This document shows, piece after piece, positions 14,861-64,000 of a DNA stretch of 64,000 nt. Under the pieces are notes generated by a model. It made no database searches. It was given only the letters and a program-made list of their open reading frames with translations, and had not been told where the DNA came from. The position numbers were made by a program, and so were the translations under genes. The DNA is from a virus (taxonomy: Duplodnaviria; Caudoviricetes), in the IMG/VR virus record IMGVR_UViG_3300031555_004728, positions 128,001-192,000 of that record; one strand, given 5' to 3'. Each line of letters starts with the position of its first letter. The stretch's first letter is position 1.

Positions 14861-15229
14861 TTAAATACCTATCACCATATAAAAGACTCTAAAAATATTA
14901 TTTAAAGCAGTAGACTCTTCAAATATACCTATTGTATTATATACTTTAATAGCAAATTTAGTTGTAGTAACTGATTGTACCTGTGCAGTTGAATAAACAT
15001 CTAAACTTGATTGAGAGTTAGTAGGATTAATATATTTAGTTACAAGTGTTACTGGTATATTTGTATACTCAAATGGAAAATATACTACCTTATCAATAAT
15101 ATATTCTGTTTTAAAAGTATCAATAACTGTATATCCATATATAATTTTAATACCATTCTCAAACTTAATATACCCACAAATTTCATTATCATTATCATTA
15201 GTACTATACTCTATAATTCGATTGCAGTT
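14861..15229 (-). CDS. Silent tail-fibre tip cassette C7 (122 aa; typical fibre C-terminal domain), start-less
   Basis: Manual translation NCNRIIEYST...GYIKFENGIKIIYG...VYFPFEYTNIP...VFYMVIGI*; absent from the ORF track because it has no usable start. Confidence 0.8.
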   Translation of the reverse strand, partial: NCNRIIEYSTNDNDNEICGYIKFENGIKIIYGYTVIDTFKTEYIIDKVVYFPFEYTNIPVTLVTKYINPTNSQSSLDVYSTAQVQSVTTTKFAIKVYNTIGIFEESTALNNIFRVFYMVIGI

Positions 15230-27002: not shown

Positions 27003-27057
27003 TATAAAAAGAAATGACTAAAAGTCATTTCTTTTTTTATATATTTTTTGTTAGGGG

Positions 27058-27139
27058 GAACCAATTTTGTTAAGTTAACTTTCTCTAGTTATCGAGATTT
27101 TCCTTAGATTACAGAAAACTTACTTAACAAAACTGCAAC
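27058..27139 (+). repeat. 82-bp repeat R8 (identical to R15)
   Basis: Direct sequence comparison. Confidence 0.97.
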
Positions 27140-49663: not shown

Positions 49664-49742
49664 ATTATCACCATCCTTTCTTTAAAGAATAGTTTTTTTA
49701 ATGTAAAAATATTCTAGGTAGATAATCTACCTAGAATATTTA

Positions 49743-50063
49743 TTAATTATATATACCTACAATTTTCACAATTCTAAATGATGAAACATCTACTGATGAG
49801 GGGTTTTCTATATAAAAACTATTATCATCAGATTTTACAAAAGCATATAAATAATATTCAGAATATGGTAATATAAATGCATGTGAATTAATATCACGTG
49901 CAAATATGAATGTTTGATAGTATTGACCTGTTTTTACAAATGTAACTAACAAATATTCTATTTTTGAAATATTTTCATCATAAAATACTTCAGTTAATGG
50001 ATATCCATTATATAAAAAATATAAAACTTTATTTTTACTTTGTTTAAATTGTTGGTTGCAGTT
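49743..50063 (-). CDS. Silent tail-fibre tip cassette C12 (106 aa)
   Basis: NCNQQFKQSKNKVLYFLYNG...IVKIVGIYN*; no ATG. Confidence 0.7.
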   Translation of the reverse strand, partial: NCNQQFKQSKNKVLYFLYNGYPLTEVFYDENISKIEYLLVTFVKTGQYYQTFIFARDINSHAFILPYSEYYLYAFVKSDDNSFYIENPSSVDVSSFRIVKIVGIYN

Positions 50064-50136
50064 TTGTTAAGTAAGTTTTCTGTAATCTTCGTGAATTACT
50101 GAGAGATAGAGAAATTTAACTTAACAAAATTGGTTC
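50055..50136 (-). repeat. 82-bp repeat R12
   Basis: Direct sequence comparison. Confidence 0.97.
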
Positions 50137-50261
50137 CCATCCCCTCTCCACCTTCTCTCACATACTATTTTTTATAATAATAACCTTAAAATAGCATTTT
50201 TAATTTTTACCCAATATTGATATATTATTTTAATAGATATTAAAGAAGGAGATTTATAATT

Positions 50262-52304
50262 ATGGGTAAAAAGAAAAGAAATTTCAAATATCTTAATAGA
50301 GAACTTAGTTGGATTAAATTTAATAATCGAGTTCTTGATGAAGCTAAAGATTCAAAACTTCCTATTAGTGAAAGGATTAAATTTCTAAGCATAGCATCAT
50401 CTAATTTCGATGAATTTTTTATGGTTCGAGTTGCATCTCTTAAGGATATGATTAATGTTGGATATAAAAAAAGAGATATATCTGGAATGACTTCATCTGA
50501 ACAAATAGTATCTATAAATAGATTAGTTCATTCTATAGTTACTAGTCAATATAATATTTATGAAAATTCTATAAGAAAAGAAATGGGATTAAATAAATAT
50601 AATTTTGTTAAATCAATAAAACAACTTTCAGATTCAGACATGAAATATATCTCAAAATATTTCAAGGATACAATATTTCCAGTATTAACACCTATTATTC
50701 TTAATAATAGTAGTACATTTCCATTAGTTAAAAATAAAGCAATCCATATAATCGTAAAGATTAAAAAGAAAAAATCTAAGAAAGAAGAATTTGCAATAGT
50801 TCAGATACCAACAAATTTACCTAGATTAGTTGTAATTCCAAATGATAAAGATAAGCCATCTGTTATTCTATTGGAAGAAGTTGTATCTGAATTTATCGGT
50901 AAGTTATTTAAATCTTATGATATATTGGAAATGTCTAAATTTAGAATTACTAGAAATGCAGGTCTTAATATTGATGAGGACGATGCTTCAGATTTATTAA
51001 ACAAGATTAAAAAGAAACTAGATGAAAGAGAATGGGGAGAAGTAATAAGACTTGAGATATTGAAAAATACAAATAAGTCTATATTTAAATTCTTAAAAAA
51101 TAAATTCAATGTCAATAAAAATAATATTTATGAAATAAATGGTCCATTAGATTTGACTTTCTTAATGGAAGTTTATGATTTAATAAAAGATATTGATGAC
51201 AAGAAACAAAAAGATTATATTCCAAAAGTTTATGATGAATTGGAATCTAATAACCTCTTTAATGTAATTTCTTCAAAAGATGTATTTTTACATCATCCAT
51301 ATGAATCATATAAACCTATAGTTGATTTCATAAAACAAGCAGCTGAAGACCCTGATGTATTAGCAATAAAACAAACTCTTTATAGAGTAAGTAGTAGTTC
51401 ACCAATTATCGAATCTTTAAGAAAGGCTGCTGAAAATGGTAAAGAAGTAACTGTACTTGTAGAACTTAAAGCCAGATTTGATGAAAATAATAATATTGAA
51501 TGGGCTAAAGTTTTAGAAAAAGCAGGCTGCCATGTAATTTATGGAATCCCAAATCTTAAGATTCATAGTAAAATATGTTTAGTTATAAGAAAAGAAAATG
51601 ATAAACTAAAATATTATACACATCTTGGTACAGGAAATTATAATGAAAAAACAGCAAAGATTTATACTGATATGTCATTATTCACATCAAATGAAGATAT
51701 TGGTAAAGATGCTATAACTTTATTTAATTTCTTAAGTGGTAATTCTAAACCAAGTAAATGGAATAAATTAATTGTAGCACCAGATAATCTAAAAGATGAA
51801 TTTATCAAACTTATTAATACAGAAGCAGAAGTAGCAAAAGAAGGAAAAAATGCACATATTATGGCAAAAATGAATTCACTTTGTGATAAAGATATCATTG
51901 ATGCATTATACAATGCAAGTAAATCAGGTGTTAAAATTGATTTAATTGTTAGAGGGATTTGTTCATTAAAACCTGGTGTTAAAGATTTAAGTGAAAACAT
52001 AAAGGTTAAATCTGTTGTAGGAAAATATCTAGAGCATTCAAGAATTTATTATTTCTGTAATTCTGGTCATCCAAAAGTATTCTGTAGTAGTGCAGATTGG
52101 ATGCCTCGAAATTTAGAACGTAGAGTAGAAATTTTATTTCCTATATTAGATATGAGGATTAAAGAACAGATAGTTGATATATTAGATTCTTTCTGGAAAT
52201 ATGATTATAAATCTTATAATATGAATTCAGATGGAAAATATATACGGGTTACAAATTCTACAAAAGAAAATAAGATTCATATTCAAAAATATCTCGAAGA
52301 ATAG
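50262..52304 (+). CDS. ppk1: Polyphosphate kinase 1
   Basis: NRELSW..FN.RVL, DEFFMVRVA, LHHPYES, TLYR, ELKARFDE, KIHSK, GTGNYN, LEHSR, SADWM.RN..RRVE. Confidence 0.97.
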   Translation: MGKKKRNFKYLNRELSWIKFNNRVLDEAKDSKLPISERIKFLSIASSNFDEFFMVRVASLKDMINVGYKKRDISGMTSSEQIVSINRLVHSIVTSQYNIYENSIRKEMGLNKYNFVKSIKQLSDSDMKYISKYFKDTIFPVLTPIILNNSSTFPLVKNKAIHIIVKIKKKKSKKEEFAIVQIPTNLPRLVVIPNDKDKPSVILLEEVVSEFIGKLFKSYDILEMSKFRITRNAGLNIDEDDASDLLNKIKKKLDEREWGEVIRLEILKNTNKSIFKFLKNKFNVNKNNIYEINGPLDLTFLMEVYDLIKDIDDKKQKDYIPKVYDELESNNLFNVISSKDVFLHHPYESYKPIVDFIKQAAEDPDVLAIKQTLYRVSSSSPIIESLRKAAENGKEVTVLVELKARFDENNNIEWAKVLEKAGCHVIYGIPNLKIHSKICLVIRKENDKLKYYTHLGTGNYNEKTAKIYTDMSLFTSNEDIGKDAITLFNFLSGNSKPSKWNKLIVAPDNLKDEFIKLINTEAEVAKEGKNAHIMAKMNSLCDKDIIDALYNASKSGVKIDLIVRGICSLKPGVKDLSENIKVKSVVGKYLEHSRIYYFCNSGHPKVFCSSADWMPRNLERRVEILFPILDMRIKEQIVDILDSFWKYDYKSYNMNSDGKYIRVTNSTKENKIHIQKYLEE

Positions 52305-52339
52305 AAATAAGAGAGTGTAAAAAACACTCTCTTATTTTT

Positions 52340-55300
52340 TTAATCTTCGTTATATAAAACAAGACAAATTTGGTCTTTATTAATACATAACATTTCTGGT
52401 ACATATGCAAATCTTTCTTCTTTACTAAGTTCATTAATATCTTTTGTGATATTTTTAATTGACTGGTAATCTGTACTATAACCCATAGTATCAGTTGTTT
52501 TGTATGAACCAGAGGCATCAATATCACCATTAATACCAATAAATTTAATATGATCTACATATGCAAAATTATTCTCAATAGTTCTCATAAGATTAGAAAT
52601 ATGAAGTTCATTAGAACCTGTTGTATTGAGATTTTCAATAGTTTCTTTAATAAATGATTTAATTTCATCTGTAACTTTGATTGCGTCTGTTCCAGCAACA
52701 AGATAAATATAGAACCCAATAGAAATATTTACTCTATCGATAATTTCATCACTATCTCCAATAATATAATTTTTACTCTTACCATATGTATTATACCATT
52801 TAAGATCAAGATATGTTGCTTGACAAATAATAGAATACAGCACAGTTTCAAGATTATTATATTGGTTTCTATACTGATTGATTAAATATGTAAACATTTC
52901 ATAATTAGTTTTTCCACACTCATTTTTTGTATATGCTCCATTAGAATCAAAATGTTGCATAAGTGAATACTTAATCATTGGTGATGAATATAAATAAATA
53001 TCACCATTTGCTACATTATAAAGTCTATCATCTCTAAAATACATTGAGCTTCTAATCATTGTAAGAGGTTTGATAAAATCTACTCTATCTGAGAATGTAG
53101 AATAGATATTTGTCCAATTATAATTAACAAGACTAAACATTGCTTGTTGTGATGGGTAGTTGTTTGTTGTATAAACATAATCATCATCAACTTCATACTC
53201 TTTATAAAGAACTACAAATTTAACTTCAACATCTGTCATAGGTATAAGTTTAGAAGTTTTATTTATGATATAAGTGAAATTACCACGAATACCAGAATTA
53301 TCAATAACCTCTTCTTCTGTATTAGATCCTTCTGTAATTGCTGAACGAAGTCTCATTACACTAGCAGTTTCAGTACCTGTATTTTCTGAAGAGTCGTCAA
53401 TATACTCTCTTTCATTAACCCATAACTTCAATTTTTCACTTTCATCCATTGTATATTCAGTAGATGTATAATCCATAAGATATGGATTATATCCAAGTTC
53501 TTCATTTGTATAGTCTTGAATTTGCATTTGATTTCCAAGTGTTACATGATCATTAGTTCTAAATTTACATTCAAATGTAACAACATCTAAATCTTTATCA
53601 TATGATGTTGGAACCATTTCCATATAACAAGAATCAACACCACCATCTTCAATAATCATCATTACTCTTACATAATTTTTTGAAAGATTTGTTCGTTTTC
53701 CAACATAATCATCATTTGAAATTCCTGGAATTAATAATTCAGGATTCCATTGCATTGATGACATTAATCTTAACTTTACAGAATATTCTTTATCCTTAGA
53801 TAAAGCTCTTTCAAAAGTAGCTTGATTGATGATAAATTGATTTGGTACATCAATATTATATTGAAGGAAATCCAAAAGTGATGTTTGATTAATTATAGTT
53901 AGGTAGTAATTTACAAGTCCTGGATGTTTTGTAATACTCATAAGGAATGGATTTGCATAAACAAACATATCCTTTGTAATACGACTTTCAATTTCTTCAA
54001 CATCAAATACTGTAAGAACCATATCTGCCATGTTATATCCAGTTTTAATACCTTCATTATGGCAGCAATAACATAATTCTTTTCCAGAATCTGGATCACT
54101 GAAAGTTCTGTGTGATTGGAAACCACAATGTGGACATGTATAAATTACATTTTCAACATAATATTCCAAAGTCTCATTTTCATTTTTTGATGAAATATAT
54201 AAAGATTCCCAGTCTTCTTCACTACTTGAATAGCTTGGGTTAACTGATGGATTAATACCATGTAACCACTTGAAGTAATCTTTCATTATATTTTGATATA
54301 CATTTTGACCTTGGAAATTTCTGAATAGTTTATCTTCTTTAAAACCTAATTTAAATAAAGGAACTACTCTATTATTATAACCATTTTCAGTTTCATATGT
54401 ATAAAGGTATCCTGGGTCTTGGGTATATGTATAACCACCATCAGGATTATTCCATGACTTGTAATTCATAGTAATATCTAATGTATTTGTAGGATATACA
54501 TAGTCCTCATTCTTACATACCATAAAACCTGTATACAAACGAGATGATAAGTCATCTCTTCTTTTAATAAATTTAATTCTGTTTTCATTCTTATCTTTAT
54601 AAGAATTAAAAAACTCTTCAAGATCTTCATCAGTACTTAATACATTTGCTGTTCTAAATTGTGTTGCGGTTAATCTTCGAAGGTCTTCTAAACTTATAGT
54701 ATCAGAACCACCTTCTGAACCTGATGTAACTAAAGCACCTAATATAAAGGTTTCATTATAATTATACTCTTCAGTATCTTTAATTATTGAAACTTCTTTT
54801 CCTGTATAAGTATCAAAGTTACCATCTTTACCTAAAGTTGTATAAGTAACTATTTTAATTTCAGAATTAAATTCTGGTTGAAAATATGAGTCATTTAAAC
54901 TAAATGATAATCTCAAAATATTCTCATCAATAATTTTATAGAAACAAAATGGATCTTTTTCTGGTAAAGAGTTTTCAACTCTAAGTAACAACTGAGTATA
55001 TTCAGTATCACCAGGTGCTTTATAAAAAGCATCAAACCCAGCTAAGATTCCATCGAATTTAACATCAATGATTGGATAATTTATAGTTGAATTATCTATA
55101 AGATTTTCTGTTGTTTCTTCTCTTACACATTGATGTCCTATAACTTCCATAGCAAAATATCCATCTACACTTCTCCTTATTTTTATATAAGGATTTGTGA
55201 TGTCTGATATAGAGTTATTGAATTCTGTAACTACATATTTAGCTGCATATACATATTCAGTAGCAGCAAGTTTTGTTTTCTTTCTAGTTATTTCGATATC

Positions 55301-55744
55301 ATAATCTAATACGAATGGTATTTCTTCTACATAAATAGTAGTATTTTTACTTAAGTAAATAACGTTTTGAGTAACTTGCGTAGCATACATATTTGCTTCA
55401 TCAAAAACTTTACTTAATTCTTTTTCATCTAAAACTAACAAAAATCTACATTTTGCCGCAGAACCAATTACATTACTTAATTGAAATAATGAAGCATATG
55501 CATAAATTGATTCTGGTAATGAAGCTTTTTGTATAAAAAATTCTTTCAATAACGTAGATGTTGCATAGAACGTATCTTCTGAAATAGTTGATAGCTGTTC
55601 TGTAGTAAATCCTATAAGACCAGAAGTTCTTGTGGAGATATCTTGGTCTGGGAAATACTTAGGTATGAGGACATCTGTTGTCAAGGTTTTAAAATCGAAA
55701 TTATCTCTATAATTTCTAGTTGTATTTACCAACTTTAGACTCAC
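52340..55744 (-). CDS. Baseplate wedge protein (gp6/baseplate-J-like) with an inserted Zn ribbon
   Basis: E-F-I-x-x-A...SI N-terminus, Y-T-T-x-G-x-x-G-N and GGSD..S..DLR..A....TDED motifs; CPHC...CYCC insert. Confidence 0.65.
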   Translation of the reverse strand: MSLKLVNTTRNYRDNFDFKTLTTDVLIPKYFPDQDISTRTSGLIGFTTEQLSTISEDTFYATSTLLKEFFIQKASLPESIYAYASLFQLSNVIGSAAKCRFLLVLDEKELSKVFDEANMYATQVTQNVIYLSKNTTIYVEEIPFVLDYDIEITRKKTKLAATEYVYAAKYVVTEFNNSISDITNPYIKIRRSVDGYFAMEVIGHQCVREETTENLIDNSTINYPIIDVKFDGILAGFDAFYKAPGDTEYTQLLLRVENSLPEKDPFCFYKIIDENILRLSFSLNDSYFQPEFNSEIKIVTYTTLGKDGNFDTYTGKEVSIIKDTEEYNYNETFILGALVTSGSEGGSDTISLEDLRRLTATQFRTANVLSTDEDLEEFFNSYKDKNENRIKFIKRRDDLSSRLYTGFMVCKNEDYVYPTNTLDITMNYKSWNNPDGGYTYTQDPGYLYTYETENGYNNRVVPLFKLGFKEDKLFRNFQGQNVYQNIMKDYFKWLHGINPSVNPSYSSSEEDWESLYISSKNENETLEYYVENVIYTCPHCGFQSHRTFSDPDSGKELCYCCHNEGIKTGYNMADMVLTVFDVEEIESRITKDMFVYANPFLMSITKHPGLVNYYLTIINQTSLLDFLQYNIDVPNQFIINQATFERALSKDKEYSVKLRLMSSMQWNPELLIPGISNDDYVGKRTNLSKNYVRVMMIIEDGGVDSCYMEMVPTSYDKDLDVVTFECKFRTNDHVTLGNQMQIQDYTNEELGYNPYLMDYTSTEYTMDESEKLKLWVNEREYIDDSSENTGTETASVMRLRSAITEGSNTEEEVIDNSGIRGNFTYIINKTSKLIPMTDVEVKFVVLYKEYEVDDDYVYTTNNYPSQQAMFSLVNYNWTNIYSTFSDRVDFIKPLTMIRSSMYFRDDRLYNVANGDIYLYSSPMIKYSLMQHFDSNGAYTKNECGKTNYEMFTYLINQYRNQYNNLETVLYSIICQATYLDLKWYNTYGKSKNYIIGDSDEIIDRVNISIGFYIYLVAGTDAIKVTDEIKSFIKETIENLNTTGSNELHISNLMRTIENNFAYVDHIKFIGINGDIDASGSYKTTDTMGYSTDYQSIKNITKDINELSKEERFAYVPEMLCINKDQICLVLYNED

Positions 55745-55755
55745 CTCAATTCTTT

Positions 55756-57306
55756 TTATTTTTCTCTAAATCTTAACTTGTAAACTGTACGTCCAAGTTT
55801 ATCAGGAACCATTTCAATGAATGGTGCCCCAACCCATGTATTACCAGTTGATAATATTTTAGGGTTATATGTTTCAAGGTAGTTTTTACTACCACTAGAA
55901 TTTAAATTAAATTCTGTTATAATTTCAGTATTCCAATCTTTTTTAAAAGAATACTGGTAGTTTATACTTATTTCTGGGTTTGTAATAAACTGTGACTTTG
56001 CAAATGTCATAATAGAATCTGGAATATTTGTTGGGAAAACTCCATAGAGTTTTGACCAATAAATAATATCCTCACCATTTTCTGCACAAACGATATAATA
56101 TGCAGAACATGCATAGTCAAGTACTTTATTTATAAGGTGATTATCTTTAGGTCTGAGTTCACCTTTATTTACAGCTGAAATATACTCTACCCAAAATTGG
56201 TGCATTCTAAATAGATGCAAATCTCTATCATCATTAAATGATATACTTAATTCTCCAGCAGCTAAAGAATCATCGATATGTCTACCATATGCAATACTAT
56301 TACCATGTAATGTCTTTCCATATGTATCATATTTAATAGATCGGTCTCTACATTCAAAACTTGTTACTCTATTTGAAGGTAACATCATGAATTGATGGTC
56401 CAATCCTACAGATTGTGACAACTGAAGTAATGTACTTGGGTTATTTTTAAACTCATATACATAATCAGGTATAGATTTTACTTGGTCTACTAATGTAAGA
56501 TTATTTGAACCTGTTGAATATATTACATTGCAATCAGGTCGTGTAAAGAACACATGTGCAAATGTTCTTGTTAACATATCATCTGGAGTAGCAACTTTAA
56601 ATCTGTTATAGTATTTGGCATATCTTTCATATAACTGAATACTACTTTCTTCATGTAAATTAATACTCTCCTTCAAATCATTAACTGCTTGTATGAAAGA
56701 ATTATCTGCATAATCGGTTTCATAATTATATTTATATTTATTAGTAGATGGATCGAATTCTGCAGCGGGAAATCCTTTGCTATTTTGAACTTTAGTCGGT
56801 GATTCTGATACTTCAGGATTAATCTGTTTAGGCTTAGTAACTCTACTTCCACTAAAATTAAAGCTGTTAATAGTAGAAAGTGCTAGTGATGGGTGTGATA
56901 CTTTATAAGTATTAACCTTCTTACCAGTTTCTATATTTTCAACAACTTTACCAGATGTCTTAATTTTAGAACCACTATTATCTTGAACTATGGATGTTGA
57001 TATTGTACTTTTATTTGTCTGTCTTGTAACAGCACTATTGTATACTGTATCACTATTCATAGCCATTAAAGATATACCTTCCATCTCTAAAAATGAATAT
57101 GAAACAGATGGGTGTTTAAGAATTACCCATCCAGATATATTACTATTTTTTACATTTACCCATTCGACATTATTTACAACACGATAATCTAATACTTCAA
57201 CTTTAGAACCAGTTGGTAGTGAACCAATGTAATTTTTATCTGAAGAATTTGATGTTGTATATACTTTTAATGATGAACGTCTTGTTTTAACTACAGCATA
57301 ATCCAA
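55756..57306 (-). CDS. Tail/baseplate structural protein with an N-terminal SH3b-like domain
   Basis: SLKVY..IGSLPTGSKVEVL..WVNV..SGWV; C-terminal KLYGVFPTNI is tube-like. Confidence 0.6.
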   Translation of the reverse strand: MDYAVVKTRRSSLKVYTTSNSSDKNYIGSLPTGSKVEVLDYRVVNNVEWVNVKNSNISGWVILKHPSVSYSFLEMEGISLMAMNSDTVYNSAVTRQTNKSTISTSIVQDNSGSKIKTSGKVVENIETGKKVNTYKVSHPSLALSTINSFNFSGSRVTKPKQINPEVSESPTKVQNSKGFPAAEFDPSTNKYKYNYETDYADNSFIQAVNDLKESINLHEESSIQLYERYAKYYNRFKVATPDDMLTRTFAHVFFTRPDCNVIYSTGSNNLTLVDQVKSIPDYVYEFKNNPSTLLQLSQSVGLDHQFMMLPSNRVTSFECRDRSIKYDTYGKTLHGNSIAYGRHIDDSLAAGELSISFNDDRDLHLFRMHQFWVEYISAVNKGELRPKDNHLINKVLDYACSAYYIVCAENGEDIIYWSKLYGVFPTNIPDSIMTFAKSQFITNPEISINYQYSFKKDWNTEIITEFNLNSSGSKNYLETYNPKILSTGNTWVGAPFIEMVPDKLGRTVYKLRFREK

Positions 57307-57504
57307 GGCTAATTCACCTTCTTTCTGTATCTTTCTGCCTTAAACTATTGTTTTCTGGGTTAATTTGCATAGGTAGAAACAAGTAATTAAGGGTGATGTG
57401 TACAAATGTTTATTGTCATCTATTTTATACTCAGTAGGAAATCTCACGTCCTACTGAGTATATTTTGTTAAAATAATATATTTTTGGATAGGTTGTGAGG
57501 ATAG

Positions 57505-57586
57505 GAACCAATTTTGTTAAGTTAACTTTCTCTATCTATTGGTAATTTACGAGAATTACAGAAAACTTACTTAACAAAACTGCAAC
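57505..57586 (+). repeat. 82-bp repeat R13
   Basis: Direct sequence comparison. Confidence 0.97.
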
Positions 57587-57910
57587 CACCAAATATATTA
57601 TACAAAACATGAGACTGAAAATGGTATTGAATGTTTTAGAGTTGGTAACATGGTTGAACTTTCATGTATAACAACATTTGATTTTCAGACTGATGGTACA
57701 ATACCAGATAATGTTGTTATACCATATGGATATAGACCATATTATAGGGGTATTCGTTTTCCAGTAATTCTTAGATCTGGTAGTGAGTATACATGTTGTA
57801 AAGGTTTTTTAACAATTGACGGTGTATTAACATTTGATAGTGTATCTTATAGTTGGAGAGAAGTACATTTTGTTTTAAGTTATATAACAAATGATGATTA
57901 TCCATCTTAA
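57578..57910 (+). CDS. Silent tail-fibre tip cassette C13 (110 aa)
   Basis: NCNHQIYY...FRVGNMVEL...IPYGYRP...LSYITNDDYPS*; the R-x-G-N-x-V and P-x-G-Y-R-P pattern is typical of fibre tips. Confidence 0.8.
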   Translation, partial: NCNHQIYYTKHETENGIECFRVGNMVELSCITTFDFQTDGTIPDNVVIPYGYRPYYRGIRFPVILRSGSEYTCCKGFLTIDGVLTFDSVSYSWREVHFVLSYITNDDYPS

Positions 57911-57924
57911 AAAATTAAGATGGG

Positions 57925-57942
57925 GAACCAATTTTGTTAAGT
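57925..57942 (+). repeat. Left half-site of the repeat (GAACCAATTTTGTTAAGT) upstream of the tail-fibre gene; an extra TTTTGTTAAGTAAAAT at about 57960-57975
   Basis: Exact match to the first 18 bp of R1-R15, with the same G-run lead. Confidence 0.9.
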
Positions 57943-58100
57943 AAAATAAACAAAAACTTTTTTGTTAAGTAAAATTTTTATTGTAAAAATATACCATAAA
58001 TAAAATAAAAAACATTCTTTTAATGTGAAATACTACGGAGTTCTATCCGTATTTTCCTTTATTATTTTCATGAAAATATTAAAACAAGGAGGATTTTGAT

Positions 58101-59528
58101 ATGAGTACAGTAAGACATCATATTGAAATGACCCACTTAGATTCGGGTGGAAATAAATATATACTTTATCCAAAGAATACCTTGGCTGACGTTCATACGA
58201 GCTCAACATCAGGTGTTACGATCGACGGAAAAGTTAATTTCTATGGAACTTGTACAACAGCTGCAGTTACAGCTGCTAAAACTGCTTCAATTAGCGGATT
58301 TACACTTGCACAAGGACAACATGTAACAATAGCTTTCACTAACGGAATTACAGTAGCAAGTCCTACTTTAAATATCAATAGTCTCGGTGCAAAAGCTATT
58401 TATCACAAAGGTGCAGCTTTAAAAGCAAATGTTATTAGAGCAGGTGCACGTGTTCAATTAGTTTATGACGGAACTAACTTTGAAGTATTAAACTTTGATG
58501 CACCATACGCACAAAGTAACAACACTACAAAGTTTTATTTGTTAGGTACACCTAACGCTGAAAATGGTGTTCCATCTGACCAATACTTCGATACAGGCGT
58601 ATATGTAAGTGCAACAGATGGTCAATTAGTTGCAAAATCATTCTCTGGTAATGGTTCTGCATTAACAAACTTGAATGCTGGAAATATTGCTTCTGGTACA
58701 GTAGCAGCAGATAGACTTCCAACTTCAGGTGCAACAGCTGGAACTTATGGTGAAAATGCTGGAGATAATACATCATTAGCTCATAGTGGTTCTCTTGTAG
58801 TTCCAAAAATTTCATTAGACAAATACGGTAGAATTACATCTGCTGAAAACATTGTTTATACAATGCCAGCAAATGAAAATACTGATGAAAAAGTAAAAGT
58901 AACTCAAAATGCTACTACAAAAGCATATGTAACAGGTACAACAACTGCAAATGGAAATGCTGGTGGATTATTATATGATCCAAATGTATATCTTGATACA
59001 ACATCTGGTAGATTCCATGCAGCAACAATGAACTCAAATACTTACTACCTCGGAGATACTTCTAACTACATTGACAGTTCAAATTATACTGGAACTGCAG
59101 CAAATGTCGGAACACTTTCTGAGTGGTTGGTAGATAGTTGTGCTTCAGATAGTGCTAACGGAGTCACCAATCAGGCACTTACAGCTAATCAGGGATATTT
59201 GTTACAAAATCAGATTGATGAGCTAAACTGCAACCTGAATGAATTTGGAACACCTATTACAACAATTTATACTGATACTGTAGAAAAATCTGTAGAGATA
59301 CCACCTAATGCTAGATTTTTAAAAGTTAGTTTTTGGAATGGTTATGATAAATATTATGGGGCAGATATGTTTCATGCAAGAGGATTAAAAACTAGTGGAT
59401 CGGTGAATATTATACTTAGAGTTAGGTATGATAATTACATAGCACAAATAACAATAACACCAAATTCAAATATACTTAAATTTAAAATGGAATCAGGTTC
59501 AATTAATGTAATGCTTCATTTTATATAA
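58101..59528 (+). CDS. Tail fibre protein: constant region aa 1-375, then the NCN junction and a 100-aa tip
   Basis: PTLNINSLGAKAI, LVYDGTNF, FSGNGSALTNLNA, DKYGRITS, ALTANQGYLLQNQIDEL fibre motifs; GGAGG SD; AACA-N6-TA at 58011. Confidence 0.9.
   Translation: MSTVRHHIEMTHLDSGGNKYILYPKNTLADVHTSSTSGVTIDGKVNFYGTCTTAAVTAAKTASISGFTLAQGQHVTIAFTNGITVASPTLNINSLGAKAIYHKGAALKANVIRAGARVQLVYDGTNFEVLNFDAPYAQSNNTTKFYLLGTPNAENGVPSDQYFDTGVYVSATDGQLVAKSFSGNGSALTNLNAGNIASGTVAADRLPTSGATAGTYGENAGDNTSLAHSGSLVVPKISLDKYGRITSAENIVYTMPANENTDEKVKVTQNATTKAYVTGTTTANGNAGGLLYDPNVYLDTTSGRFHAATMNSNTYYLGDTSNYIDSSNYTGTAANVGTLSEWLVDSCASDSANGVTNQALTANQGYLLQNQIDELNCNLNEFGTPITTIYTDTVEKSVEIPPNARFLKVSFWNGYDKYYGADMFHARGLKTSGSVNIILRVRYDNYIAQITITPNSNILKFKMESGSINVMLHFI
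59225..59235 (+). other. Core junction AAACTGCAACC inside the tail-fibre gene
   Basis: Same sequence and frame (N-C-N, codons 376-378) as the 3' end of the repeats. Confidence 0.85.
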
Positions 59529-59565
59529 ATATTATATATAAAATACTATTAAGAAGGTGAGGGGA

Positions 59566-59647
59566 GAACCAATTTTGTTAAGTTAAATTTCTCTATCTAT
59601 CGATAATTTCCTTTGATTACAGAAAACTTACTTAACAAAACTGCAAC
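59566..59647 (+). repeat. 82-bp repeat R14
   Basis: Direct sequence comparison. Confidence 0.97.
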
Positions 59648-59998
59648 CAACAAGAATTGGTAGCATCATTAACTCCACATGAATCATATGGAGCACATAT
59701 GAATCCTACATATGATGCACAACATTCACTTTTTACATTAGGTAGATTTAAAATTGTATCCGGAACTGTAGAAAGTAAGCATTTTCCATATAATAGTAAT
59801 TCTGGTGCGTATGAATATACTTCATATTTTTCATACCCATTTAATGTGATACCTAGAGTTTTGGTTACTGCAGAATATCCTGCAGGATTACCAGAAGTTT
59901 GTGTAGCTTCAGTAACTACTACATATGTAAAACTTTCATGTAGTTCACAATTAAATAGTTTATGGGTAAATTGGTTTGCATTTTCATTTGATGAATAA
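59639..59998 (+). CDS. Silent tail-fibre tip cassette C14 (119 aa; H-type lectin-like)
   Basis: NCNQQELVASL...FSYPFNVIPRVLVT...VNWFAF. Confidence 0.75.
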   Translation, partial: NCNQQELVASLTPHESYGAHMNPTYDAQHSLFTLGRFKIVSGTVESKHFPYNSNSGAYEYTSYFSYPFNVIPRVLVTAEYPAGLPEVCVASVTTTYVKLSCSSQLNSLWVNWFAFSFDE

Positions 59999-60034
59999 AA
60001 AAAAGAAGAGGGTTTTTAATCCTCTTCTTTTTTC

Positions 60035-60859
60035 TTATAAAATACTTCCAATAGAATCTAAATCCATATCTCTATACATTTTATCAAACATGATGTTTGA
60101 AAATACAGAGCAGTTTTCATTATCTGGAATTGGATAAATATATGTCATTGGATATTTACCCATTTCTTCATAAAACATTTGTGCTACCACATTTGGATTG
60201 TTTTTAAATACACCACAACCATAAGCACCAAGATATAAAATATCAACTAAATGAGAATATGCACATTGCATTAGAATCTGAATTCTTTCTCTCATCGTAG
60301 ATTCTATTTCTTCTTCAGAAACATTATTTCGTAAAGCTGCCCCTCTATTAGGTGCTGCAATAGTAATAACGTCTGCTTTAAAGATACTACCTTTTTCACC
60401 AATAAATATAACATCTGGAGTATAAATCATTCTATGCTTATATAGAGCTTTATTTTTATTCTCTCTATTATAATGATAGAATGTGTCATCGAATGCTTCC
60501 AATATAGGATACAATGTACTAGAATGGCAGATACACTCTTCCTGAGCACTTGAACCTTTAATAAACATCCCACCTGGATTTTTATATGAAGCGAAATTTA
60601 ATACACAAATTTTATTCTTCTTTGATTTTGAATTTGTAACAGCTTCAACAATTCCAGATTTAATAATTTTACATTTAAATGCACCAGAGTTGTCTCTTTC
60701 TAGATTATCTTTTAATAACTCCATGCAATTTTCTTCAGTATATACAACAGAATTTTGAATTGAATATTCTATTTCATCTTGAAATCTTCTGTGCATATCA
60801 ACTATATGCTCACGTGCTTTTTCTTTGTTAAGCTCTTTCTTTGTCCAATAATTAATCAT
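60035..60859 (-). CDS. TIGR02452-type PARG-like macrodomain ADP-ribose glycohydrolase
   Basis: VLNFASYKNPGGMF..GSSAQEECIC.SSTL, IYTPDV, AAPN, LGAYGCGVFKN. Confidence 0.9.
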   Translation of the reverse strand: MINYWTKKELNKEKAREHIVDMHRRFQDEIEYSIQNSVVYTEENCMELLKDNLERDNSGAFKCKIIKSGIVEAVTNSKSKKNKICVLNFASYKNPGGMFIKGSSAQEECICHSSTLYPILEAFDDTFYHYNRENKNKALYKHRMIYTPDVIFIGEKGSIFKADVITIAAPNRGAALRNNVSEEEIESTMRERIQILMQCAYSHLVDILYLGAYGCGVFKNNPNVVAQMFYEEMGKYPMTYIYPIPDNENCSVFSNIMFDKMYRDMDLDSIGSIL

Positions 60860-61073
60860 GATAAAATCCTCCTTATATAAGACATTTCTACAAAAATAAT
60901 ATATTTACAAAAACGAATATTATTCATTAATATAGATATATTATTTTGATGTACAAGGGCACTTGTACACCACCTATTAATTATTCAACAGTGCCCTTGT
61001 GCACCTTATTTTTTATTTATTAATTAAAACAAATTATTAAATCATAAAATATTAGAAAGGAAAGTATGAATTT

Positions 61074-61466
61074 ATGAAAACTATTGATAAATTGAAATTA
61101 GCAATTTTCGAAGCTGGTAATAATGGCATTATCGATGAAGGTAAAGTTAAAGAAATGATTACTGTTTGCGAATCTGCTAATATGGAAAATCAGGATGATG
61201 TAAACGCTCTGACTAAGATTACAGAAGAGTTAATTTCAGTTACAGAATCTGTTGAAAATCCAGAAGCTCCTGTTGTTGAAGAACCAGTAGTTCCTGAAGA
61301 GCAACCTGTTCAAGAATCAGTTGCTGAGATTCAGCATAAAGAAGAAACTCCTTCTGTAAATATGACAGAACTTAAACTTGAGATCTTTGAAAGTGAAGCA
61401 AGTGGTCAAATTACTCCAGAAGAAAGAGATCTCTTGCTAAGTATGATGGATGTACATACAGCTTAA
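61074..61466 (+). CDS. Acidic head/scaffold-type protein
   Basis: IFEA, VCES, VTES, VQES, IFES motifs; AACA-N6-TA at 61028. Confidence 0.55.
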   Translation: MKTIDKLKLAIFEAGNNGIIDEGKVKEMITVCESANMENQDDVNALTKITEELISVTESVENPEAPVVEEPVVPEEQPVQESVAEIQHKEETPSVNMTELKLEIFESEASGQITPEERDLLLSMMDVHTA

Positions 61467-61506
61467 TAAATATGAGATACAGAAAAATCTGTATCTCATA
61501 TTTATT

Positions 61507-62157
61507 TTATTTTCCTTGATATGCTTTAAGATAAAGACCTGGTTCTCTTACTTTAGTAGATGGGGTATTAAATTTTTTAGATATTTCATGATCTTTTATC
61601 TCTTCACCTCTACTTCTAATAGATTCTATAGGCACATTACTCTTATTTTCTTTACCAATTTCTAACCGTGACTCATTGTCTAAAGGGCTAGAATAATAAT
61701 CTCCTCTTGAATAATTTTCTTTATATTTGTTAAGTTTATTTGATAAATCGTGTTCAAGTTTTTTAATTTGAAGTGTGATTTTTTCTTTAACAGAATCACT
61801 TGCTGTTTTTTGTATTTTTTTTAACGCTTTAATTTTTTCTTCAGTTTCTTCATTTTGTTTTCTTAATTCTTGTAATGCTTTTGTATGTTCTTTTTCATAT
61901 CTAGTTGCTTCCAAAAGAACTATACACTCATCATTATCAATAATACCTTCTGTAAATCTTTCTAGTACTGAAATATGATATTTAGAATTATCTACTGATT
62001 CTAATAATAATATACATTCATCTACTGATATATCACCATTAATTACTGATTCTGTAATTGAATCAATAACTGCTGGTTCAGTTTCAATAACCATATCTTC
62101 AACTGATTCTGTAACACAGTCTAAAATATTGTCTAAAAGTTGTTCAAATTTACTCAT
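61507..62157 (-). CDS. Head-type protein with an acidic propeptide-like N-terminus
   Basis: VTES, ITES, LLES, FTEG, LLEA, then a basic coiled coil. Confidence 0.55.
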   Translation of the reverse strand: MSKFEQLLDNILDCVTESVEDMVIETEPAVIDSITESVINGDISVDECILLLESVDNSKYHISVLERFTEGIIDNDECIVLLEATRYEKEHTKALQELRKQNEETEEKIKALKKIQKTASDSVKEKITLQIKKLEHDLSNKLNKYKENYSRGDYYSSPLDNESRLEIGKENKSNVPIESIRSRGEEIKDHEISKKFNTPSTKVREPGLYLKAYQGK

Positions 62158-62242
62158 ATTATTAAATCCCTTTCTCTATATTTAATGAACCCAAAACAAA
62201 GTTTTAATAAAACTTTGTTTTAGGAATTTTTGTTAAAATATT

Positions 62243-63070
62243 CTAATACCAATTGCCTGCTTCAACGCCAATATATTGACTTTCGCTACCATAATAAAAA
62301 TAAACCGTTGTACTTAACGGTGCAACTTCATTAAATGTAATTTGTACAGCATTATATGCATATCCTATAGCTTTTATAGTACCACCAGAATCTATACCAT
62401 TATATTTTAAACCACATGAAGTAGTTACACCATTAATGACAGTTCTAGATGTTCCAGCCATATTATTTATAATCCATGGATCATGAATATAAATACTTCC
62501 ACCAGAATCAGATCCACAAACATATTGTCCATATGGTAATTTGTAATAATATCTTTGACATAACCTCAGTTCTTCATCATATCTTCTAGGAATATTTCCT
62601 GTAAACTTAGTACCCTTTTCAAGTTTTATAAAGTCTATATTATAACTATCAGTCATTAATACTGAAAATTCATCATAATTTTCTATTGGACCTCCTGTGT
62701 GTCTTGTATATGATAACTTTAAATTTGGTGATATAATAAATGAATCACTTACAGATCCATTTATTATATATGATCTTATAACTCCATCAAAACTTATAGT
62801 TATAGTATACTGAGCATTATCATCTATTGTATACTCTAAGATTTGTTTTAGTTCAACTGATTTAACAGTTCCTATATTAATAGATATACCTGAATTATCA
62901 TTTAATTTTGATACTATTGGCATAGTATCATTTGGATTATTTATAGTAATATATTTAATCCACATATCTGCTGTATATCCACTCGCTCCAGTATTAAAAC
63001 TAGTACCTCTTTGCCATACTTGAAAATTTCCATTAATTAAAATATTAGGGTTAACAAATTGGTTGCAGTT
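62243..63070 (-). CDS. Silent tail-fibre cassette C15 (275 aa)
   Basis: NCNQFVNPNILINGNFQVWQRGTSF...YTADMW...KLEKG...EELRLCQRYY. These fibre motifs begin upstream of the first ATG. Confidence 0.85.
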   Translation of the reverse strand, partial: NCNQFVNPNILINGNFQVWQRGTSFNTGASGYTADMWIKYITINNPNDTMPIVSKLNDNSGISINIGTVKSVELKQILEYTIDDNAQYTITISFDGVIRSYIINGSVSDSFIISPNLKLSYTRHTGGPIENYDEFSVLMTDSYNIDFIKLEKGTKFTGNIPRRYDEELRLCQRYYYKLPYGQYVCGSDSGGSIYIHDPWIINNMAGTSRTVINGVTTSCGLKYNGIDSGGTIKAIGYAYNAVQITFNEVAPLSTTVYFYYGSESQYIGVEAGNWY

Positions 63071-63143
63071 TTGTTAAGTAAGTTTTCTGTAATCTAAGGA
63101 AAATCTCGATAACTAGAGAAAGTTAACTTAACAAAATTGGTTC
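63062..63143 (-). repeat. 82-bp repeat R15
   Basis: Direct sequence comparison. Confidence 0.97.
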
Positions 63144-63216
63144 AATTCCTACATTATCAATGATAATTTCTATCTAAAAACAATCTACTAATTAAGTAAA
63201 TAGGAGGATATAAATC

Positions 63217-63936
63217 ATGAATATGTCTTCATTAATATCAAGAATAAAAACTGAACTAGGTCTGTATTCTATAGCATTACCTCTTGACAATGTGGATGCT
63301 ACTATTGCAGAGGTTATAATTAATACAACACTTAGAACATATTCTCAATATTTTCCTCAATATGAAATAATAAGAAAATCTAGTGCTGAAATAGAAAGAT
63401 TATATAGAAATCTTGAGTATTGTGATATGACTCTTGAAGTACCTGATGGTAGTGAAATAGTATTTGTTGCTGATGTTTATTATGATGCATCTGATATAAA
63501 TGGTATTGGATATTATGGTGCTGGTATGCCTATATATTCACCAAATATGATTACTGATTTATTAACTGCTAATATAGGTGCTAATTTGACAAATATGATG
63601 TTTCCTAAATTAACATGGCATTTTCAATATCCTAATAAACTTAGAGTATATCATTTATATGGTGGAAATATATTTATCAAGTGTGCTAAATTACATGATA
63701 AATCATTAACATCAGTTCCTTTTTCACAAAAAGAAACATTTACGAATATTGCTATTTTAGATGTTAAGAAAGCAATGTATAATATAATCAAGCACTATAA
63801 TGAACTTGAAACTGCTCATGGAAGAATTAATTTGAAAATTGATGATTGGGCAGATTCATATAACGAGAGAAAAGAATTACTTAGAGAGTGGGATGATACA
63901 TTCCACTTAGAGCAGAAGTCAGTTTATTTTGCGTAA
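63217..63936 (+). CDS. Structural protein, possibly neck/head-completion
   Basis: 239-aa ORF; GGAGG; AACA-N6-TA at 63179; loosely gp13-like layout. Confidence 0.45.
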   Translation: MNMSSLISRIKTELGLYSIALPLDNVDATIAEVIINTTLRTYSQYFPQYEIIRKSSAEIERLYRNLEYCDMTLEVPDGSEIVFVADVYYDASDINGIGYYGAGMPIYSPNMITDLLTANIGANLTNMMFPKLTWHFQYPNKLRVYHLYGGNIFIKCAKLHDKSLTSVPFSQKETFTNIAILDVKKAMYNIIKHYNELETAHGRINLKIDDWADSYNERKELLREWDDTFHLEQKSVYFA

Positions 63937-64000
63937 AATATAATCCATTGGAATTTTTATTCCAATGGATTATTTATTTTATTGATATAATGGTTTAATT

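Follow-up and report, generated by a model that had tools for sequence, protein, structure and literature searches.

Mu and P1 carry invertible tail-fibre segments, G and C, which are turned by the serine invertases Gin and Cin. In integrons, promoterless cassettes with attC hairpins are served by the tyrosine recombinase IntI and by a single expression point, attI with the promoter Pc. Recombinase-mediated cassette exchange, an engineering method, uses heterospecific sites that flank a segment, and a double reciprocal exchange swaps the contents cleanly. The vsa locus of Mycoplasma pulmonis is described in PMC2268961, in its part on this locus, as a single promoter, ribosome-binding site and 5' coding region that are joined to silent 3' ends by site-specific rearrangement. 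The same account assigns the recombinases of vsa (HvsR) and of vpma/vsp (Xer1/Mbr) to the tyrosine/Xer type. For the R64 shufflon, in which Rci acts on sfx sites to vary the PilV tips, the part of PMC11852207 on the sites reports asymmetric sites with a conserved spacer and one conserved arm. The Bifidobacterium Rin shufflon appears as a prophage shufflon in the relevant part of PMC6109161. In the literature searched, shufflons were found in prophages and plasmids, and neither a system of dispersed tip cassettes whose expression module is mobile nor a natural cassette-exchange design was encountered.

The DNA analysed here, a stretch of 64 kb termed the window, belongs to a genome of 275,512 bp (G000) from a jumbo phage of the gut. 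The tail-fibre constant region was present in one copy in the whole genome. The locus is best read as a DNA-level switch of tail-fibre tips, in which an expression module and a hairpin would be exchanged at two half-sites, likely by an Xer-like tyrosine recombinase. A probability of roughly 65% was assigned to this reading.

Tip cassettes and their hairpin repeat

An 83-bp hairpin repeat, consisting of a left arm, a variable hairpin interior, a right arm and a core, was present in 35 copies in the G000 genome. All 35 cassettes of the genome, including all 15 of the window, were promoterless and read in frame from NCN. Thirteen were located on the plus strand and 22 on the minus strand. They spanned 29.6 to 220 kb and were thus spread over about 190 kb, with essential genes between them, and the terminal cassettes had no repeat downstream. 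Apart from the two that adjoin the expression module, the window contained the following repeats, in window coordinates:

2591 to 2673, minus strand: repeat R1, with a downstream cassette of 102 aa
3970 to 4052, minus strand: repeat R2, cassette of 120 aa
4488 to 4570, minus strand: repeat R3, cassette of 144 aa
6751 to 6833, minus strand: repeat R4, cassette of 112 aa
7123 to 7205, minus strand: repeat R5, cassette of 97 aa
14751 to 14833, minus strand: repeat R6, cassette C6 of 124 aa, whose orthologue is the expressed tip in the relative L010
15221 to 15303, minus strand: repeat R7, cassette C7 of 122 aa; in L010, the module has its left junction at the left end of R7
27057 to 27139, plus strand: repeat R8, cassette of 123 aa
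27550 to 27632, plus strand: repeat R9, cassette of 122 aa
45979 to 46061, plus strand: repeat R10, cassette of 104 aa
46403 to 46485, plus strand: repeat R11, cassette of 119 aa
50055 to 50137, minus strand: repeat R12, cassette of 106 aa
63062 to 63144, minus strand: repeat R15, with a long cassette of 275 aa that extends to 62243 and has a weak PHROG tail-fiber match

A chance origin of the repeat-end matches is excluded. At up to three mismatches, the left 19-mer had 16 matches in the window with 0.14 expected, 15 of them in full repeats and one isolated. The right 18-mer also had 16 window matches (0.20 expected), of which 15 were in repeats and one, with three mismatches, was at 25947. 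In the whole genome, the 35 matches of the left 17-mer comprised 34 in repeats and the isolated left end of the module. The tips themselves are essentially unannotated folds. Pfam searches with 10 window cassettes returned nothing above threshold, with H_lectin at 18.6 and 17.4 bits (cut-off 24) and Gp53-like_C at 15.1 bits (cut-off 24.9).

Five folds of the repeat as single-stranded DNA had z-scores of -1.5 to -5.5. In them, an outer stem of 11 bp is separated by a 4x4 internal loop from the inner stem, and the tip varies. RNAalifold on 54 distinct repeats returned two stems only, the outer one and a short inner one. Between the two lineages compared below, the arms differed by one double change and two G.T changes with complementarity kept. 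Two inverted sites for protein binding would be expected to show the same pattern, so that covariation leaves the choice between hairpin and duplex undecided.

The expression module

According to the preliminary description, the order at the locus was R13, C13, a half-repeat, the constant unit, the core, the tip, R14 and C14. Every element was located at the place given for it:

57504 to 57586, plus strand: R13, a full 83-bp repeat with left arm, variable hairpin interior, right arm and core
57578 to 57910, plus strand: C13, a silent tip of 110 aa from NCN with its stop at 57910; it is the expressed tip in the assembly P0003 at 99% identity
57924 to 57942, plus strand: left boundary site S_L, the first 19 bp of the repeat, GGAACCAATTTTGTTAAGT, as the sole isolated copy in the genome
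57960 to 57975, plus strand: second copy of the arm motif, TTTTGTTAAGTAAAAT; the arrangement is also kept in L010 and in G004 of the sister lineage
58008 to 58025, plus strand: promoter-like motif AAAAACATTCTTTTAATG, common to the upstream regions of several other genes
58086 to 59234, plus strand: SD (58086 to 58093) and tail-fibre constant region, with ATG at 58101 and 378 codons up to NCN
59225 to 59235, plus strand: right boundary site, the S_R core AAACTGCAACC, common to the right end of every repeat
59235 to 59528, plus strand: expressed tip (tipX), a silent cassette apart from the constant region in the sequencing runs X7 and X11
59565 to 59647, plus strand: R14, a full repeat
59639 to 59998, plus strand: C14, a silent tip of 119 aa, with a terminator-like hairpin downstream (59999 to 60035)

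Both module ends proved slightly longer than described. The isolated left end was present and overlapped GGGG, with a length of 19 bp instead of 18 bp. The last 10 bp of the repeat, AAACTGCAAC, were found at 59225 to 59234, and the next base, C, was common as well, which extends this end to 11 bp. The second arm motif reported near 57960 was found as TTTTGTTAAGT at 57960 to 57970, and at the left end of the module the 16-bp direct repeat TTTTGTTAAGTAAAAT was present in two copies, 28 bp apart. An SD followed by 375 constant codons before the core was also confirmed. The 'late promoter' placed at 58011 was upheld as a motif only: AAAAACATTCT (58008 to 58018) is part of AAAAACATTNTNNTAA, which lies about 30 to 45 nt before the start codons of at least eight other genes in the G000 genome and G004. 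The bare 11-mer AAAAACATTCT was not enriched over shuffled sequences, with 36 matches compared to 24 to 44 in 10 shuffles. A blastn search in distant mode with window positions 57400 to 60000 against a collection of phages gave no match. The exact 24-mer across the junction of left half and module had 0 matches in viral contigs and 0 in genome contigs.

Two half-sites of different kinds enclose each slot, and their conserved arms point inward as mutually inverted copies. In G000, S_L consists of GAACCAA followed by TTTTGTTAAGT and S_R of ACTTAACAAAA followed by CTGCAAC. A hairpin of roughly 45 nt fills 35 slots and yields the 83-bp repeat, and the 1.3-kb promoter-plus-constant module fills one. 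To the right of each S_R, a promoterless tip starts in frame from NCN. The 6 to 7 nt outside each arm were invariant in repeats and module and differed between S_L and S_R in both lineages. Arm and invariant nucleotides were kept together in 35 G000 and 18 G004 repeats, with a variable outer side. Each site has just one conserved arm, and at the S_R of the module this arm is missing too, which counts against the two-site reading.

The module at another locus and fusions to other tips

The module was found at a different cassette locus in L010, a relative at 95% identity. The L010 module, corresponding to window positions 57923 to 59235, was 96.8% identical and was located between the orthologues of window positions 15280 and 14760. 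This is the R7/C7/R6/C6 locus, and both flanks were collinear with it. From window position 27200 to 4278, L010 was collinear with G000, save that window positions 57923 to 59235 stood in place of 15279 to 14761. The preliminary description had predicted the constant region at other cassette loci in related genomes, which was borne out here; a constant region always kept between the orthologues of C13 and R14 was looked for, and the contrary was seen. Gene conversion had been offered as an alternative, and pure cassette import leaves the moved module unexplained. Silent-cassette conversion of the pilE/pilS type, with a fixed expression locus, was rejected since the locus of the module differs between G000 and L010 and the module is absent from its G004 locus in G006.

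Fusions of the constant region with different tips were found in related assemblies. In P0003, C13 (99% identity) was fused to the constant region, itself at 96%, and P0002 had the constant variant of P0003 with another tip. The pairs P0004/P0005 and P0006/P0007 each had a common constant region and diverged directly past LNSN/K. Altogether, constant-tip fusions at the DNA level were present in at least four assemblies of the lineage (G000, L010, P0002 and P0003), and additionally in G004 and G005. Since the fusions exist in DNA, RNA trans-splicing, the other alternative named beforehand, is unnecessary. Tip joining in RNA, whether through trans-splicing or through template switching, with the repeat as an RNA element and incidental differences in DNA, would agree with the hairpin fold of the repeat, with its wobble pairs, which are G.T(U) on the sense strand, and with the two group I introns that Rfam detected at gathering thresholds elsewhere in the phage genome. 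The repeat itself matched no Rfam family at these thresholds. Together with the DNA fusions, this disfavours RNA joining, which is considered barely credible.

Among the 20 sequencing runs listed, none was of RNA. Four sequencing runs were compared, all as Logan contigs ending at repeats, and their junctions are known by coordinates, not letters. Only run joints with at least 30 letters on either side were used, and those found at 85% likeness were left out. In X7 and X11, the module ran into about 400 nt other than tipX, and tipX, together with its own flank downstream, formed a cassette apart from the module. R14-C14 was absent from both runs. No alternative junction within a sample was established in the Logan contigs of X1 and X6. 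A joint from 59640 to 57926 was observed in X11, where the coordinates suggest a core-less repeat abutting the left end of the module in an 11-5-11 palindrome.

The sister lineage

G004 contained a homologous repeat of 82 bp in 18 copies. The family was found by self-BLAST; a pattern search starting from the end of the constant region gave matches no better than the control. The G004 module of 1,633 bp was bounded by the left 24 nt and the last 11 nt of the repeat. The genome fragment G006 corresponded to G004 57923 to 135698 (99.995%), followed by 51 nt and by G004 137332 to 146082 (100%), and carried an intact 82-bp repeat in place of the 1,633-bp module. An intact repeat at the vacated place, as predicted beforehand, was thus found in the sister lineage. 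Together with the L010 relocation, the comparison of G006 with G004 supports the earlier proposal that the module relocates or is exchanged with the interior of a repeat. At 0/78 mismatches, the G006 repeat at the vacated locus matched only the G004 repeat at 153794, and the other 17 copies differed at 1 to 17 positions, so that reciprocity in this lineage hangs on one diagnostic nucleotide. In a third fragment, G005, the constant core was joined to exactly the 153794 cassette. This assembly may be a chimera of a mixed population or a dead-end molecule, because it skips 16.5 kb that hold a gene for a 1,612-aa RNA polymerase beta-like protein.

Assembly artefacts through the repeats, with nothing moving, are a highly improbable source of these differences. 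Short-read assemblies do break at repeats, the run contigs end there and G005 may well be chimeric. However, the G006 junction (flank, 82-bp repeat and tip) and each constant-core-tip junction fit within one short read, and an identity of 11 bp does not mislead an assembler. Moreover, both L010 junctions belong to one neighbouring locus, and independent protein records carry one constant region with different tips.

In the synteny comparison of G000 and G004, 20 of 22 cassette clusters coincided with breakpoints, against a random mean of 5.8, a count in which cassettes fall partly into alignment gaps by construction, as cassette DNA is unalignable between the lineages. The telling point is that the blocks flanking the cassettes were non-collinear. 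Such scrambled order at cassette loci would also be expected from a classical shufflon-like system, in which the S_R core alone recombines, large inversions result and the left half-repeat is an inert relic. The presence of one conserved arm and spacer per site, as in sfx according to the site description in PMC11852207, the cassettes on both strands and the likeness of G005 to a core-only event fit this picture. A core-only exchange, however, could never change the upstream flank of the module. In L010, and in G006 compared to G004, the left boundary was exactly in the left arm and both flanks came from one locus. The left half and the second arm copy were also kept in G000, L010 and G004. 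A shufflon-like mode was accordingly judged quite improbable.

Candidate recombinase

One PF00589 protein was encoded in the phage genome, with XerA as the best NCBIfam match (238.8 bits, cut-off 220). Its R, K, HxxR, H and Y motifs aligned with XerC-like and XerD structures. Few residues followed the Tyr motif, and no Rci-type C-terminal extension was evident. The gene was located at 202143 to 203168 of G000 (202.1 to 203.2 kb), with the nearest repeats at 195.1 and 209.1 kb, none of them adjoining. G004 held a homologue at 73%. Homologues at 35 to 44% (8 of 11 loci) were found in ordinary small phages of 10 to 50 kb or in a provirus. None of these eight records contained a convincing homologue of the constant region, the sole record with matches showing E values of 9e-5 and 3e-4. 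The recombinase family is therefore not specific to the tip-switching system, and the link between enzyme and system is confined to co-occurrence in two lineages. Judged from sequence, the catalyst is likely the single Xer-like tyrosine recombinase of the phage, which is conserved in both lineages.

Integron integrase models stayed far below their cut-offs (TIGR02249, 91.9 bits with cut-off 265; NF011946, 52.4 bits with cut-off 435). The whole genome had no match to the serine recombinase family PF00239, for which the control matched in 12 of 14 genomes, and a switch by a serine invertase (Gin/Cin/Min) was rejected on this ground. A diversity-generating retroelement was rejected because the whole genome had no match to the reverse transcriptase family PF00078. 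Hairpin- or RNA-guided transposition of the IS200/IS605 or IS110 type was rejected likewise, as the genome had no match to PF01797 (Y1 HUH transposase) or PF01548 (DEDD transposase).

Jumbo phages recombine actively, and the general recombination and replication machinery of the phage might move the module by homology-driven recombination or gene conversion with no dedicated recombinase. The boundaries of the exchange are the only stretches common to module and repeats, with 19 to 24 bp on the left and 11 bp on the right, and the link between enzyme and sites is drawn from sequence; both points leave room for this explanation. As a substrate for homologous recombination, however, the 11-bp identity on the right would be very short. 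Arm, invariant spacer and hairpin were kept across two sequence-diverged lineages, beyond the needs of homology arms, and so was the tyrosine recombinase. In addition, the G006 locus had the interior variant of the partner repeat, as for a reciprocal rather than a copy-only event. General recombination therefore appears unlikely.

Proposed exchange

In the preferred reading, the two-site exchange between module and hairpin, a reciprocal exchange at S_L and S_R between the module slot and a repeat would swap the module for the hairpin interior. The constant region would then be fused to another tip, the old tip would fall silent with a repeat re-formed in front of it, and all genes between the two loci would be retained in their orientation. 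An exchange at S_R alone would also change the tip and would rearrange the intervening DNA. A point against the reading is that the two G004 loci of the apparent swap, A and 153794, were in direct orientation, where an inversion-only enzyme of the shufflon type could not exchange them in one molecule. We infer the two-site mechanism, its crossover regions, the enzyme, the frequency of the exchange and its effect on host range; all genome comparisons were between assemblies from different samples, and no tip switch was seen inside a single population.

If this reading is true, the 35 tips of G000 (18 in the sister lineage) would far exceed every programmed repertoire of receptor-binding tips so far known from phages, and the system would be the first with the expression module instead of the cassette as the moving part. 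It offers a concrete and testable account of how large phages in the gut might keep pace with shifts in host surfaces. Tip switching would also explain synteny breaks exactly at cassette loci in this phage group. From the site organisation, the recombinase would act on two classes of very short sites that are orthogonal to each other, a property of possible use for laboratory cassette exchange. For metagenomics, the locus is a warning that contigs of such phages break or chimerise at the repeats and that a mixed population may give rise to artefactual 'deletion' variants such as G005.

Comparison with known systems

The phage resembles vsa in having one constant region and 35 promoterless in-frame cassettes. 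The vsa genes are clustered at one place of a bacterial chromosome and rearrange by inversion, whereas the phages carry 18 to 35 cassettes, over about 190 kb, each behind a hairpin repeat of 83 bp, and the second site on the left would permit a clean swap that preserves both flanks. Like the R64 shufflon, the phage has one adhesin gene with alternative C-terminal segments, a recombinase of the tyrosine type and asymmetric sites. That shufflon is a compact invertible block, and Rci is reported to perform inversions only. In contrast, the phage has two heterospecific site classes in dispersed positions, and the expression module itself changes locus. A compact block beside the recombinase gene, as in a shufflon, was not found, with cassettes at 29.6 to 220 kb.

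Integrons and the phage share promoterless cassettes, a single expression point and a tyrosine recombinase. A further possible likeness lies in the imperfect inverted repeat of each cassette, which in single-strand folds has an outer and an inner stem on either side of an internal loop, and a variable tip. Integron cassettes are whole genes that are brought to a fixed attI near Pc, whereas the phage cassettes are 3' gene fragments fused in frame. They are also dispersed, the terminal ones lack a downstream repeat, and the promoter moves instead of the cassettes. As in Mu, P1 and the Rin shufflon, site-specific recombination within the 3' portion of the tail-fibre gene would alter the phage host range. 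Unlike the dispersed phage cassettes, those systems keep their alternatives, two to a few in number, together in a single local block that inverts.

Recombinase-mediated cassette exchange is man-made and uses lox or FRT variants, whereas the phage slots are natural. It is tentatively suggested, at somewhat less than even odds, that the phage system is a natural counterpart of this method, with heterospecific slots that divide the genome into blocks, a mobile module that trades with a small hairpin and reaches any of 35 tips with essential genes left in place, scrambling of gene order between lineages at these sites and perhaps, as with attC, a folded single-stranded hairpin as the substrate.

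Architecture of the fibre locus and its repeats

The preliminary description had placed R13 and C13, the left end of a repeat, a fibre gene carrying the repeat's right end, the tip, R14 and C14 in this order (R, full 83-bp repeat; C, silent tip cassette behind it), and this layout was confirmed in the sequence. Coordinates refer to the window unless marked as genome or preceded by another record.

Features of the fibre locus
57504-57586, full repeat R13
57910, end of the stop codon TAA of C13
57924-57942, first 19 bp of the repeat (GGAACCAATTTTGTTAAGT), its starting two G being the last two of a GGGG run
beyond this isolated left end, AT-rich region with a second TTTTGTTAAGT at 57960
58086-58093, SD
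58101, ATG of the fibre gene, with an open frame of 475 codons
59225-59234, last 10 bp of the repeat (AAACTGCAAC) inside the fibre open frame; the following C is also common to the repeat
59235-59528, expressed tip (tipX) of 98 codons, adjoining the core, as the repeat's right end is called
59565-59647, full repeat R14, followed by C14

With up to three mismatches allowed, the window contained 16 matches to each repeat end, where chance would give 0.14 (left) and 0.20 (right); both ends far exceed chance. Each of the 15 full repeats of the window was followed by an open frame that begins NCN and is in register with the constant gene.

The window covers bases 128001-192000 of the whole phage record (G000), which comprised 275,512 bp with direct terminal repeats and a G+C content of 28.5%. 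It held 35 full repeats, 13 on the plus and 22 on the minus strand, which spanned 29.6-220 kb and occurred singly or in tandem groups of two to three. Behind each lay a cassette, in frame and 89-275 aa long, with terminator-like hairpins 3' of terminal cassettes. The constant region and the isolated left repeat end were both present once in the whole genome. The gap between C7 and R6 (window ~14834-14862, genome ~142834-142862) was taken up by a (TA)n run some 25 nt long. A 27-kb IMG/VR fragment (G002, locus L004), near-identical to the left part of G000, terminated exactly within a repeat, showing how assemblies get broken by these repeats.

Other genes were also identified. Two group I introns (Rfam RF00028; 81.5 and 79.8 bits) at 47331-47608 (-) and 48560-48867 (-) lay in or beside pieces of the terminase large subunit gene and had stretches of 86-88% identity in common (repeat families D4 and D5); the ORF at 48824-49663 matched PHROG terminase large subunit families. 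A full-length polyphosphate kinase with all four PPK1 domains (50262-52304, +; E-values down to 3e-80) was placed between C12 and a structural-looking gene of 1,134 aa. Very long ORFs encoded 2,991 aa (31608-40583, -) and 1,509 aa (9598-14127, +).

Relocation of the module in related genomes

The fibre-gene promoter and constant region, bounded by the left 19 bp and right 11 bp of the repeat, are referred to as the module. In a metagenome scan, 597 stretches matched and 427 of them were relatives; among the 80 relatives retained, L010 was the only one with more than 90% identity. This 21-kb part of an 88-kb contig followed the G000 minus strand collinearly from window 27200 to 4278 (78-96% identity) except at L010 9823-11135, which corresponded to the module, window 57923-59235, at 96.8% identity. 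There, the module stood between the orthologues of window 15280 (left end of R7) and 14760 (core of R6). The junction alignments located the left join inside GGAACCAATTTTGTTAAGT and the right join inside AAACTGCAACC, and the constant region was fused to the C6 orthologue with C6's own terminator behind it. These junctions indicate that the left half moves as one unit with the second arm copy, promoter region and constant region, and that in L010 this unit stands at another cassette locus, from which both flanks come. A shufflon acting at the core only could not give the module a new upstream flank.

Immediately 3' of the fibre locus in G000, window 60035-60859 (-) encoded a protein with a microbial-type poly(ADP-ribose) glycohydrolase domain (PF10021, 4.6e-30). 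In the more distant L011 (40% identity), which lacks cassette-type tips, the fibre gene adjoined a reverse-strand gene that corresponds, by position alone, to this PARG-like gene. The module position in G000 is therefore probably the ancestral one.

The sister lineage was represented by G004, a phage record of 278,849 bp whose constant region and recombinase were 65% and 73% identical, respectively, to those of G000. Its repeat, a distinct one of 82 bp, was present in 18 copies (one truncated), with cassettes following as in G000. The two repeat families aligned base for base and are homologous. The truncated copy (41516, -; locus L106) retained the left arm and hairpin interior without the right arm, core and cassette, and a terminator-like hairpin followed directly; it looks like a dead slot.

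Features of the G004 module
135699-137331, module, bounded by the repeat's left 24 nt and by its last 11 nt (CTAAATAGTAA)
135846-136016 (-), reverse ORF (locus L110) of 56 codons (MSYIDNLRKLYNEMK...), placed after the left half-site and ahead of the fibre promoter

As in G000, a second arm copy lay about 29 nt after the left one. The interval from left half-site to fibre promoter also contained a terminator-like hairpin; the G000 module had neither this hairpin nor the reverse ORF.

Fragments of the same lineage came from other samples. G006 (86,578 bp) consisted of G004 57923-135698 (99.995% identity), 51 nt, and G004 137332-146082 (100%). The 51 nt complete an intact repeat at the place of the G004 module, so the tip expressed in G004 is a silent cassette there. 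This repeat matched the G004 repeat at 153794 in 78 of 78 positions, while the other 17 copies differed at 1-17. In G005 (33,012 bp, third sample), G004 127887-137342 was joined straight to 153861-177427 at 100% identity, and the constant core was fused to the cassette of that same repeat at 153794. Together, the three records look like products of a contents exchange between two slots, although its reciprocity hangs on one nucleotide. The 16.5 kb skipped by G005 include a 1,612-aa gene resembling RNA polymerase beta, so this fragment may represent either a chimera assembled from a mixed population or a molecule that is not viable. G007 was collinear with G004 throughout and uninformative on the exchange. 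The ORF of 1,612 aa (L111:8344-13182) matched RNA polymerase beta subunit PHROGs, and the phage group thus probably encodes its own multisubunit RNA polymerase.

Movement of the module was demonstrated at the level of genome comparison, which supports the central inference of the preliminary description. Its predictions of a constant region at another cassette locus and of an intact repeat at the vacated site were borne out by L010, with both flanks of the R7/R6 locus, and by G006 compared with G004, respectively.

Different tips on one constant region

In protein record P0003, a constant region 96% identical over 80% of the query was followed, past NCN, by C13 (99% identity), the silent cassette directly upstream of the module in the window. 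P0002 had the same constant variant as P0003 with a different tip. The more distant pairs P0004/P0005 and P0006/P0007 each had a constant region in common and diverged right after LNSN/LNSK. Judged by these constant regions with differing tips, tip switching is real, takes place in DNA and characterises a whole phage group. Joining of tips at the RNA level is an unnecessary assumption.

Part of the stretch was present in 20 sequencing runs, all of them DNA, which belonged to 16 animal gut or faecal studies. Four were compared with window 49700-64000 by the coordinates of contigs, which ended at every repeat. Runs X1 and X6 agreed with the reference. In X7 and X11, one contig contained the module to 59235 and then about 400 nt unlike tipX. 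In another, the core with tipX (59225-59528) came after letters unlike the constant region, and 67 other letters separated it from 60013 onward. These flanks indicate that tipX is silent and R14-C14 absent in both runs. The C13 contig of X7 extended 9 letters beyond 57942, unlike the module, which fits a full repeat behind C13. The run contigs are supporting but not decisive evidence. Misassembly might be invoked for the junctions that differ between the genome records, but these fit within single reads, and misassembly cannot make such junctions.

The constant region had no Pfam family of its own in a Pfam search. Among 8000 candidates scored, 379 homologues reached E <= 0.001; 120 were listed and eight of those domain-scanned, revealing Phage_tail_fib, Phage_fiber_2, Phage_fiber_rpt, Peptidase_S74, Gp53-like_C, PTR, Collagen or H_lectin. 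The gene adjoining the fibre gene carried a tail-tube domain, and the longest cassette had a weak PHROG tail-fiber match. On these three grounds, tail fibre with exchangeable tips seems a fair name. The tips themselves were almost without annotation.

Site anatomy, candidate recombinase and proposed exchange

The two ends of the repeat form an imperfect inverted repeat of 19 bp round a variable interior; GGAACCAATTTTGTTAAGT and the reverse complement of the right end, GGTTGCAGTTTTGTTAAGT, were identical at 14 of 19 positions. The single strand folded with an outer stem of 11 bp, then a 4x4 internal loop and a short inner stem that ends in a variable tip. The inner stem of the G004 repeat was a clean 13-14 bp hairpin. 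On the left, module and repeats had the arm and 7-8 nt outside in common, on the right only the arm's last 3 nt and 7-8 nt outside. The invariant outer stretches differed between left and right, with GAACCAA versus CTGCAAC in G000 and ACGGAA versus TAGTAA in G004.

Five enzyme families were searched in G000. One tyrosine recombinase of 341 aa was found (genome 202143-203168), and no serine recombinase, reverse transcriptase, Y1 transposase or IS110 transposase domains. Its best NCBIfam match was XerA (238.8 bits, cut-off 220), and the Arg, Lys, His-x-x-Arg, His and Tyr motifs aligned with XerC-like and XerD structures. Homologues were present at 11 loci: three in the G004 lineage (73%) and eight, at 35-44% identity, in small phages or provirus, none of the eight with a convincing fibre homologue. 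Given this distribution, the assignment of the Xer-like recombinase as the enzyme of exchange is plausible but circumstantial.

We infer the role of this enzyme and the following reaction steps. Two half-site classes, S_L and S_R at the left and right of a slot, would each consist of one conserved arm and a crossover region of 6-7 nt. S_L would recombine only with S_L, and S_R only with S_R. Exchange at both would swap the slot contents; exchange at S_R only would yield a new tip but rearrange the intervening DNA. The core ended in CTGCAAT instead of CTGCAAC in five of the 35 G000 repeats (genome 29593, 108153, 124558, 143238 and 195103), and the cassettes at genome 122574, 143238 and 195103 begin NCNR(I/L)IEY and form one subfamily. 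Were the crossover region 7 nt long, its last position would be a mismatch between the module and these five CTGCAAT cassettes. Homology-driven conversion is another possible means of moving the module or tips; it would, however, need to act on 11 bp and does not account for the conserved site architecture.

Most genes were common to G000 and G004 but distributed over 33 blocks of mixed order and orientation. Cassette clusters coincided with the 32 breakpoints in 20 of 22 cases (random mean 5.8, maximum 14 in 10,000 placements), and 19 of the 32 breakpoints had a cassette, an overlap that arises partly by construction because cassettes do not align between lineages. The flanking blocks, however, are non-collinear, which would follow if the repeats act as recombination sites and have inverted and moved blocks.

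Comparison with known systems

No system like this one was found in the literature searched. Nearest in function is the vsa system of Mycoplasma pulmonis, outlined in PMC2268961, in which a tyrosine recombinase sets a segment that carries promoter, ribosome-binding site and the initial 714 coding nt before silent 3' gene parts. Nearest in site design is the R64 shufflon, whose site is described in PMC11852207 as a 7-bp spacer with two arms, of which one (12 bp) is conserved while the other varies. The hairpin and promoterless cassettes resemble those of integrons; integrase models, however, fail on the phage recombinase, and in this phage the promoter is what moves. The novelty lies in the spread over an entire virus genome, in how many tips there are, in the hairpin 'placeholder' and in the proposed second site class enabling clean exchange.
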